From the NCBI RefSeq assembly GCF_030013595.1, contig NZ_CP122768.1: DNA of 64,000 nt; one strand, given 5' to 3'. This stretch comes from Escherichia coli (GTDB taxonomy: Bacteria; Pseudomonadota; Gammaproteobacteria; Enterobacterales; Enterobacteriaceae). Within the stretch, counting starts at the first letter, position 1; each line of letters begins with the position of its first letter. The notes under the pieces were generated by a model. The model searched no databases. It was not told where the DNA came from and saw only the letters and a program-made list of their open reading frames with translations. The position numbers and the translations under genes are program-made. Shown here piece by piece: positions 49,767 to 50,913 of this stretch.

Positions 49767-50121
49767 AAAGTCCTGTCCAGAAAGAAGTCGGCCTCGCAAA
49801 AATGAATAAACCCAGTTTCTCTTGCGCAACAGGTGGAGAAGTCGAATACGCAGTATGTAAAAAATGAGGCAACAGATTCACTGGGGAAGTCGCGAGGAGG
49901 CGCAATTCTACAAAATTGCGCATTTCACTACCAGTCTGGAGTCAGCCCGGATATGAACTGCAACTAATGCAAATAAAGAAATTAAGCTGGAAGGCATCAC
50001 GCAATGAGGAAGATTGCCGGGTGCTGACGGTAAAAAGCAATCGTAGAATCAGCGGCAAGCCGGAAAGGTTCCGGTGAGGCGCAATGTTGCGGGGGCTTTA
50101 TCCCTGGTGGCATTGGTTGCT

Positions 50122-50190
50122 GGAGAGAGAAAACCCCCGCACGTTGCAGGTATGCACCTGACAACACCACGGGGGCTAATCTTGACTCTA
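50122..50190 (-). ncRNA. rdl: Candidate Rdl antisense RNA, copy 1 (approximate ends)
   Basis: Minus strand upstream of the ldr ATG has a long GC-clamped hairpin followed by UUUUCUCUCU; placement is by analogy with K-12 rdlD. Confidence 0.4.
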
Positions 50191-50241
50191 GACCACTCAA
50201 GAATAGCCGCGAAACGTTGTCATTACAACTCAGGCGGCTAT

Positions 50242-50349
50242 ATGACGCTCGCAGAGCTGGGCATGGCCTTCTGGCATGATTTAGCGGCTCCGGTCATTGC
50301 TGGCATTCTTGCCAGTATGATCATGAACTGGCTGAACAAGCGGAAGTAA
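50242..50349 (+). CDS. ldrD: Ldr-family type I toxin (35-aa membrane peptide)
   Basis: ATG-initiated 35 codons MTLAELGMAFWHDLAAPVIAGILASMIMNWLNKRK. Confidence 0.8.
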   Translation: MTLAELGMAFWHDLAAPVIAGILASMIMNWLNKRK

Positions 50350-50398
50350 CGTGTCATGCGGGCGTCAGGCTGCCGTAATGGCAATTTGCGCCCGGATC

Positions 50399-50430
50399 AG
50401 GCCGCAGGGGTGAAACTCTGCGGCCTTTTT
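50399..50430 (+). terminator. Rho-independent terminator of ldr copy 1
   Basis: GGCCGCAGGGGTGAAACTCTGCGGCC hairpin followed by TTTTT. Confidence 0.6.
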
Positions 50431-50604
50431 CGTAAGAAAAATGCAACGGTTGCAAGCGGATAATATTCTGCGGAATGCGCAGCACAGAGTGAAGACGTGA
50501 TGGATTCCGGAACAGAAAAACAGTCGTAGAATCAGCGTCAAGCCGGAAGGGTTCCGGTGAGGCGCAATGTTGCGGGGGCTTAATCCCTGGTGGCATTGGT
50601 TGCT

Positions 50605-50673
50605 GGAGAGAGAAAACCCCCGCACGTTGCAGGTATGCACCTGACAACACCACGGGGGCCATTCTTGCATCCA
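50605..50673 (-). ncRNA. rdl: Candidate Rdl antisense RNA, copy 2 (approximate ends)
   Basis: Same hairpin plus U-tract arrangement as copy 1, offset by the repeat period. Confidence 0.4.
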
Positions 50674-50724
50674 AACAATACAAGAATAGCCGCGAAACGT
50701 TGTCATTACAACACAGGCGGCTAT

Positions 50725-50832
50725 ATGACGCTCGCAGAGCTGGGCATGGCCTTCTGGCATGATTTAGCGGCTCCGATCATTGCTAGCATTCTTGCCAGTC
50801 TGATCGTGAACTCGCTGAATAAGCGGAAGTAA
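50725..50832 (+). CDS. Ldr-family type I toxin, divergent second copy
   Basis: 35 codons MTLAELGMAFWHDLAAPIIASILASLIVNSLNKRK; five substitutions relative to copy 1, including W30S. Confidence 0.75.
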   Translation: MTLAELGMAFWHDLAAPIIASILASLIVNSLNKRK

Positions 50833-50882
50833 CGTGTCATGCGGGCGTCAGGCTGCCGTAATGGCAATTTGCGCCCGGACCA

Positions 50883-50913
50883 GGCCGCAGGGGTGAAACT
50901 CTGCGGCCTTTTT
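50883..50913. terminator. Terminator of ldr copy 2, probably shared with convergent bcsG
   Basis: Same GGCCGCAGGGG...CTGCGGCC hairpin plus T-run, 6 bp from the bcsG stop. Confidence 0.55.

Follow-up and report, generated by a model that had tools for sequence, protein, structure and literature searches.

A two-unit LDR-D type I toxin-antitoxin array between yhjV and bcsG of Escherichia coli very probably consists of old, recombining paralogs, with the single copy of K-12 as a contraction

The K-12 toxin-antitoxin pair ldrD/rdlD (LDR-D) is said to go back to Kawano et al. 2002. K-12 MG1655 carries one such cassette, ldrD, between yhjV and bcsG, and a three-unit array of ldrA/B/C and rdlA/B/C between kdsA and chaA. 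When over-expressed in K-12, LdrD kills the cell and RdlD prevents the killing; RdlD pairs with the 5' UTR of the toxin mRNA and not with its ribosome-binding site, and one proposed model links Rdl binding to translation of the toxin via a leader ORF, ldrX, in the manner of mok and hok (PMC4147584). The double-stranded RNA formed by ldrD and rdlD is cleaved by RNase III in vivo in K-12 (PMC7373196). In strain BL21(DE3), the bcsG-yhjV interval contains three ldrD/rdlD pairs, compared with one in K-12, and Rdl transcripts have been shown there (Kim et al. 2017, PMC5435950). The Ldr peptides form an LdrD group and an LdrB group, followed by lineage-specific duplications that have given Shigella sonnei as many as 10 Ldr genes (Fozo et al. 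2010, PMC2887945), and a tendency to tandem duplication within one intergenic region is also described for hok/sok and ibs/sib (PMC2887945). Like ldr/rdl, the hok/mok/sok and ibs/sib systems encode a small hydrophobic toxin on a stable mRNA whose 5' UTR is long, opposed by a cis-antisense RNA that is short and unstable, and hok/mok/sok shares in addition the proposed coupling through a leader ORF (PMC4147584). However, the toxin families of these systems are unrelated to Ldr.

We analyzed a window of 64,000 nucleotides of E. coli DNA in which two LDR-D units lie head-to-tail between yhjV and bcsG with a period of 483 nt. The features of the locus, in window coordinates, are as follows.

48495-49766, minus strand: yhjV, flanking gene.
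50033-50433, plus strand: LDR-D unit 1, a complete ldr/rdl cassette (direct repeat and K-12 identity).
50044-50049, plus strand: putative -10 box TAGAAT of the ldr-1 mRNA promoter (read by eye, and conservation).
50128-50193, minus strand: rdl-1, a 66-nt antisense antitoxin RNA (Rfam RF01813, 87 bits, model positions 1-66 of 66).
50152-50241, plus strand: candidate leader ORF ldrX, an upstream frame in frame with ldr-1 (translation).
50242-50349, plus strand: ldr-1 toxin ORF, 35 codons, MTLAELGMAFWHDLAAPVIAGILASMIMNWLNKRK (Pfam Ldr_toxin; RefSeq WP_001521561.1).
50399-50431, plus strand: intrinsic terminator of the ldr-1 mRNA (hairpin at 50399-50426 with an 11-bp stem containing 8 G-C pairs, then TTTTT).
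50434-50515, plus strand: inter-unit spacer, specific to multi-copy arrays at yhjV-bcsG (alignment and genome search).
50516-50916, plus strand: LDR-D unit 2, a complete ldr/rdl cassette (direct repeat and identity to AR_452 and K-12).
50527-50532, plus strand: putative -10 box TAGAAT of the ldr-2 mRNA promoter (offset as in unit 1).
50611-50676, minus strand: rdl-2, a 66-nt antisense RNA (Rfam RF01813, 81.7 bits, full model length).
50725-50832, plus strand: ldr-2 toxin ORF, 35 codons, MTLAELGMAFWHDLAAPIIASILASLIVNSLNKRK (Pfam Ldr_toxin; RefSeq WP_109790531.1).
50882-50914, plus strand: intrinsic terminator of the ldr-2 mRNA (hairpin at 50882-50909 and T-run, the same as in unit 1).
50919-52598, minus strand: bcsG, flanking gene (stop codon at 50919).

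The first-pass annotation of this DNA had described two near-identical head-to-tail units with a period of about 483 nt and had placed them at 50035-50913, coordinates that proved correct within a few bases. In self-alignment, the repeat search returned the duplication as a single direct-repeat family (50033-50332 and 50516-50815, 93% identity, spacing of 483 nt), and the homology extended to 50433 and 50916 in a MAFFT alignment. Between 50039-50433 and 50522-50916 there were 21 mismatches in 395 nt, corresponding to 94.7% identity, and, judged by its sequence, a repeat of such length and identity cannot be accounted for by chance. Tandem Repeats Finder returned no rows for the array, presumably because it contains only about 1.8 periods of 483 nt. 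The 82-nt spacer showed a weak alignment to the sequence upstream of unit 1.

When compared with the K-12 cassettes, unit 1 was 98.7% and unit 2 was 94.9% identical to LDR-D, while both units showed 78-79% identity to LDR-A/B/C; by this measure and by their yhjV-bcsG site they are assigned to the LDR-D subgroup and not to LDR-A/B/C. The first-pass annotation had also stated that K-12 has a single ldrD/rdlD cassette at this position and a tandem array only at ldrABC, and the MG1655 genome agrees on both points. The locus in the window shares with K-12 ldrD/rdlD the yhjV-bcsG site, the 35-codon ORF, the 66-nt antisense RNA, which lies 48 nt ahead of the start codon, and the terminator, but there is one unit in K-12 and two in the window. 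The resemblance to the K-12 ldrA-rdlA/ldrB-rdlB/ldrC-rdlC region lies in the tandem arrangement, the cassette family and the internal layout, whereas that array occupies another locus, has a period of approximately 535 nt and encodes LdrB-group toxins, in addition to its lower identity. The arrays of BL21(DE3) and the 2- to 5-unit arrays in RefSeq have the same locus, 483-nt period, spacer and unit type, and differ from the window only in copy number and in the alleles carried by each unit.

The expression signals of the two units were read from the alignment. The ldr and rdl promoters are given as putative, because a sigma-70 consensus scan of the region found no promoter at the threshold of 9 of 12 matches. 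K-12 LDR-A/B/C carry TAGTAT at the -10 position equivalent to TAGAAT, and the -35 region upstream of the ldr-1 TAGAAT falls in sequence that is not common to both units. Transcription from the conserved TAGAAT would yield an ldr mRNA of approximately 375 nt. On the minus strand, a putative rdl promoter, consisting of TTGTAA and TATTCT separated by 17 nt, precedes each Rdl start. The ldr frame is open upstream to an ATG at 50152 in unit 1 and at 50635 in unit 2, both of which lie inside the Rdl-complementary segment, and this in-frame upstream ATG fits the ldrX proposal, making the frame a candidate ldrX. Additionally, unit 2 has the same ribosome-binding region as unit 1 and, as had been noticed from the letters alone, the same terminator hairpin, which in unit 2 is convergent with the 3' end of bcsG. 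Matches of the Rfam sok model were found on both ldr 5' UTRs, but their scores of 23-30 bits fall below the gathering score of 59, and membership was rejected.

Each unit had been credited with a 35-codon Ldr ORF, and both ORFs matched the Pfam family Ldr_toxin (PF13940) over residues 1-35 of 35, with 89.0 bits (E = 2e-25) for Ldr-1 and 78.6 bits (E = 3.5e-22) for Ldr-2. A search of NCBIfam gave no family for Ldr-1, Ldr-2 or K-12 LdrD, and that library is thus uninformative for Ldr peptides. The two ORFs differ at 6 nucleotides, 5 of which change an amino acid. Relative to K-12 LdrD, Ldr-1 carries F3L and V28M, while Ldr-2 carries F3L, V18I, G21S, M26L and W30S, and all of these except F3L also set Ldr-2 apart from the LdrD consensus. 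The signature of the Fst/Ldr superfamily is a PXXXG motif in the transmembrane helix together with a conserved tryptophan before the charged C-terminus (PMC2887945, PMC7472228). PXXXG is essential for the toxicity of Fst, and the tryptophan is a described family signature (PMC7472228, PMC2887945); the toxic Fst prototype has valine in its place, so the tryptophan is dispensable there (Weaver, PMC7472228).

Ldr-1 keeps both P17xxxG21 and W30. In Ldr-2 both signature residues are lost, with G21S breaking PXXXG and W30S removing the tryptophan; serines occupy positions 21 and 30, and the peptide has no other C-terminal tryptophan. Among 42 distinct Ldr peptides from the fetched loci, representing more than 10 genera, the glycine was kept in 40 and a tryptophan at P+13 or P+14 in 39, and Ldr-2 was the sole peptide that had neither. 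W30S without G21S was seen in several lineages. At the DNA level, the exact ldr-2 allele was present in 2 of the 5,426 complete E. coli genomes, with the allele lacking G21S in 6 more. The unit 2 toxin may be attenuated, going by these substitutions.

An antisense region with an Rdl-like hairpin and U-tract had been proposed upstream of each toxin gene, and the Rfam rdlD model (RF01813, gathering score of 50) matched in both places at 87 and 81.7 bits. The rdl-1 sequence is identical to K-12 RdlD. Both RNAs fold into a long hairpin followed by a U-tract, with energies of -29.5 kcal/mol (z = -3.98) for rdl-1 and -30.1 kcal/mol (z = -3.19) for rdl-2. They are complementary to the ldr 5' UTR at 49-114 nt upstream of the start codon, which leaves a gap of 48 nt between Rdl and the start codon in both units, versus 47 nt for the annotated rdlA/ldrA of K-12. 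All 6 differences between the two Rdl RNAs are in the first 18 nt, the 5' tail (GUCUAGAGUCAAGAUUAG versus GUUUGGAUGCAAGAAUGG), and the remaining 48 nt, including the stem-loop and U-tract, are identical in the two units.

The single-stranded 5' tail of Rdl is also the most variable part of the unit, and the differences between the two units cluster at 50177-50197. In an alignment of 26 LDR-D units, the 20-nt tail window had a mean column entropy of 0.43, compared with 0.00-0.26 elsewhere; this aligned profile was preferred over ungapped per-segment diversity, which is inflated by a 1-nt deletion in unit 4 of AR_0061. At least eight variants of the tail were found, assembled from two short blocks. 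With their own mRNA, the tails gave calculated duplex energies of -28 and -29 kcal/mol, versus -5.8 and -13.1 kcal/mol with the mRNA of the neighboring unit. Insulation of paralogous pairs has been described for Sib/Ibs, and by analogy the tail differences could insulate the ldr/rdl pairs from one another. The idea is a weak one, because rdl-1 and rdl-2 do not differ in the 48 nt outside the tail and the same tail recurs in two adjacent units of AR_0061.

To place the two-unit arrangement among other E. coli strains, 5,426 complete genomes were searched with three queries, and the resulting copy numbers are BLAST place counts in assemblies, some of which may have collapsed repeats. A 1,601-nt query covering the locus had a match in 5,425 genomes. 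The spacer query (50425-50525) was found in 3,304 of the 5,426 genomes (61%) at 6,981 places (median 2, maximum 4 per genome), and the unit-2 ORF query found 12,275 places with LdrD-type ORFs in 5,332 genomes (median 3, maximum 6 per genome). The difference between ORF places and genomes carrying them (12,275 - 5,332 = 6,943) is near the number of spacer places, indicating that almost every copy belongs to a single array in its genome. By the bounds that these counts set, approximately 37% of the genomes have one copy, at most about 12% exactly two and at least 49% three or more. We also inspected 40 hits sampled at even steps down the ranking of the 1,601-nt query. Exactly two units with the same flanks were present in 4 genomes, and one unit was present in 15, which included K-12 derivatives and O157:H7 among others; a further 20 matched through the end of unit 2 and then diverged, and these were counted as having three or more copies. 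Two of the 20 were fetched and had three annotated Ldr genes with a 483-nt period. The last of the 40 hits was to a plasmid, and weak. Where the spacer occurred at four places, in a strain that was read directly, yhjV-bcsG had five tandem Ldr genes. Multiple copies, two to five in most strains, are the majority state in E. coli, and two copies are one common allele, below the typical number. Tandem ldrD/rdlD cassettes are already known: they are common, they have been published for BL21(DE3), and the extra copies are annotated in RefSeq as Ldr family toxins.

The age of the units was assessed from their relatives in other strains. The middle unit of strain AR_452 matched unit 2 at 97.2% identity, and each unit of the window is thus nearer to a unit of another strain (98.7% for unit 1 with K-12) than to its own neighbor (94.7%), which identifies the two as old paralogs and not the products of a recent duplication. 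AR_0061 has five units, and on either side of them 400 nt of flanking sequence are identical to K-12. The fifth equals K-12 LDR-D save for 1 nt at the 5' edge, units 1-3 have 12-21 differences from K-12 LDR-D, and unit 4 gives an ungapped count of 104, inflated by its 1-nt deletion. The K-12-identical flanks and the matching fifth unit indicate that the single copy of K-12 is a contraction, and on the simplest reading, unequal crossing-over close to the 5' edge of the repeat would have removed units from K-12. Alleles are shuffled between positions across strains, as shown by the K-12-type Rdl tail, carried by unit 1 in the window and by unit 5 in AR_0061; owing to this shuffling, a comparison of unit alleles and spacers did not separate a loss from three copies from a retained two-copy state in the window strain.

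Arrays at this site are not confined to E. coli. Two LDR units with a period of 483 nt lie beside bcsG in Escherichia sp. E1V33, and E. whittamii, Citrobacter, Salmonella arizonae and Salmonella diarizonae each have one unit there. In the Klebsiella oxytoca complex, arrays of two to three units adjoin bcsG, their periods being 476-480 nt, and Kluyvera sichuanensis has three at 497-532 nt; K. cryocrescens has a two-unit tandem array, counted here without assignment to the bcsG site. The LDR units beside bcsG outside E. coli are convergent with it. Going by these genomes, the bcsG-side LDR locus and its tendency to form arrays are older than E. coli.

We hold with high confidence that two LDR-D type I toxin-antitoxin cassettes form an array in this region, that its units are old recombining paralogs and that the single copy of K-12 is a contraction. 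The first-pass annotation had read the same locus as an expansion, and a recent, strain-specific duplication of one K-12-like ldrD/rdlD cassette would account for the single cassette of K-12 at yhjV-bcsG and for the 98.7% identity of unit 1 to it. That reading is very improbable, since the units differ at 21 of 395 positions, unit 2 is nearer to the middle unit of AR_452, the spacer is common to 61% of complete E. coli genomes and K-12 itself resembles a deletion derivative of an array with five units. The same pair of alleles, with unit 2 lacking G21S, also occurs in the unrelated strains ST2747 (Belgium) and JNEC-KY178 (Japan), and MEI003 and one further isolate have a near-identical unit-2 ORF. 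The term expansion did not survive the comparison with 5,426 genomes, in which the spacer is widespread and the median is 3 LdrD-type ORFs, nor the published arrays and the age of the paralogs; with K-12 as the sole reference, an allele that is common is taken for an expansion. It is hardly conceivable that a single unit was written twice by the assembler. Repeats of approximately 480 nt are a known difficulty in short-read assembly, although this lends the artefact no direct support, and the error suspected at the ldrABC locus is the opposite one, collapse (PMC7232551). An artefactual duplicate would be identical, but the units have 21 differences, including 5 amino acid changes. Moreover, HCP5S3_I2 is 100% identical over the whole 1,601-nt region, the exact ldr-2 ORF is present in two deposited assemblies (HCP5S3_I2 and LCP30S3_I5, from the same study), and among the six more genomes with a near-identical unit-2 allele, ST2747 and JNEC-KY178 were read directly and have the two-unit arrangement.

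A different question is whether both units of the preferred two-unit array work as toxin-antitoxin pairs. Only unit 1 might do so, with unit 2 decaying in such a way that its peptide is non-toxic but neither its Rdl gene nor the signals of its mRNA have been lost. We regard this as a serious possibility, somewhat short of an even chance. The predominance of amino acid-changing differences in the ORF (5 of 6), the position of G21S and W30S at signature residues, the isolation of Ldr-2 among the 42 peptides, its lower Pfam score (78.6 versus 89.0 bits) and the restriction of its exact allele to 2 genomes all speak for decay. Against it, the 35-codon ORF is intact, the ribosome-binding region and terminator are as in unit 1, the Fst prototype does without the tryptophan, and the occurrence of W30S without G21S in several lineages means that this change is tolerated and perhaps functional. 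A more elaborate proposal is that the units of the array are non-redundant, with the Rdl tail as the element that recognizes its own mRNA, with insulated pairs reshuffled by recombination and with a unit 2 toxin disarmed by G21S and W30S while its antitoxin RNA is kept; we consider this unlikely.

Under the favored reading of two complete cassettes in an old array, the working of the locus can be outlined from the literature on K-12 and BL21, which is the source for transcription, for toxicity and its rescue by Rdl, and for cleavage by RNase III; the present analysis established the anatomy, the family to which the cassettes belong, their frequency in the population, paralog age and the K-12 contraction. 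Each unit would produce, from the plus strand, a stable mRNA of approximately 375 nt that runs from just downstream of TAGAAT to the GC-rich terminator and carries the ORF of a 35-residue, membrane-active Ldr peptide. The 66-nt Rdl, complementary to the ldr 5' UTR, would be transcribed from the minus strand, and its pairing with the mRNA would lead to cleavage of the duplex by RNase III and prevent translation of the toxin, possibly through the upstream frame ldrX that starts inside the Rdl target. We infer that both units are expressed in the window strain. Unequal crossing-over between the 483-nt repeats would make the array longer in some strains and shorter in others.

For the type I toxin-antitoxin field, the loss of both signature residues in Ldr-2 and the hypervariable 5' tail of Rdl are incremental additions. 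The copy number at yhjV-bcsG is a fast-changing marker, which short-read assemblies may collapse, and deletion studies of 'ldrD' in K-12 do not transfer directly to strains that carry several diverged copies. Overall, K-12 is an atypical reference for the yhjV-bcsG locus, as three or more LDR-D cassettes occur there in most E. coli, against one in K-12.

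Differences between the two tandem LDR-D units that lie between yhjV and bcsG were concentrated in one short segment, comprising the 5' tail of the antisense RNA Rdl together with a few bases immediately preceding the Rdl start:

50176-50197, variable segment of unit 1
50659-50680, variable segment of unit 2

The first 18 nt of Rdl differed at 6 positions between the units, and the other 48 nt did not differ at all. In a comparison of 26 LDR-D units, drawn from the window plus 10 other genomes (11 sources in total), the Rdl 5' tail segment showed the highest variability in LDR-D, with an entropy of 0.43 compared with at most 0.26 elsewhere, and it was present in at least 8 mosaic variants.

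The toxin ORFs had also diverged, and five of the six nucleotide differences between them altered an amino acid. The peptide encoded by unit 2 lacked both signature residues of the Fst/Ldr superfamily, carrying G21S within the PXXXG motif together with W30S at the conserved tryptophan. This exact allele was found in 2 of 5426 genomes, while a W30S allele without G21S occurred in several lineages. Upstream of ldr and in the same frame, each unit contained an open frame that may be ldrX, a leader ORF proposed previously (PMC4147584). In both units the ATG of this frame fell within the Rdl-complementary segment, and reading through into ldr could generate a product of 65 residues.

50152-50241, open frame upstream of ldr, unit 1
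50635-50724, open frame upstream of ldr, unit 2
50725-50832, Ldr ORF of unit 2

The 5' UTRs of the two ldr mRNAs gave weak matches to the Rfam sok family (23 and 30 bits), below the gathering score of 59; these matches may arise because the leader regions of hok and ldr resemble each other in structure, or they may be due to chance. A second type I toxin-antitoxin locus was present in the window, and its hok/sok-type element (124 bits to Rfam sok) adjoined a cspA thermoregulator 5' UTR (501 bits). Other RNA elements were a tRNA, a naRNA4/REP-type element (65 bits) and an ES036 match that barely exceeded its gathering score (38.9 versus 37.6).

50091-50244 and 50574-50727, plus strand, sub-threshold sok matches
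29902-30053 (plus strand) and 30336-30763 (minus strand), second toxin-antitoxin locus and cspA thermoregulator 5' UTR
41960-42036, plus strand, tRNA-Pro (CGG)
42130-42211, minus strand, naRNA4/REP-type element
11110-11152, plus strand, ES036 sRNA match

E. coli AR_0061 carried an array of five LDR-D units (L010; NZ_CP020058.1, 2352-4390) with flanks identical to those of K-12. The last unit of this array differed from K-12 LDR-D by only 1 nt, located at its 5' edge, so that K-12 appears to have reached its single copy by deletion.

LDR sequences were also found in two nonenterobacterial assemblies, Bacillus sp. EB106-08-02-XG196 (L035) and Chryseobacterium sp. 18061 (L041), where they most likely represent enterobacterial contamination; the Bacillus locus was a near-LdrD ORF on a 503-nt contig with a coverage of 0.66. 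Arrays of two and three units, with periods of 476 to 532 nt, adjoined bcsG in other genera, namely, Klebsiella (K. spallanzanii, L047; K. michiganensis, L049; and K. oxytoca, L036) and Kluyvera (K. sichuanensis, L051). Thus, array formation at the bcsG site is not specific to E. coli.
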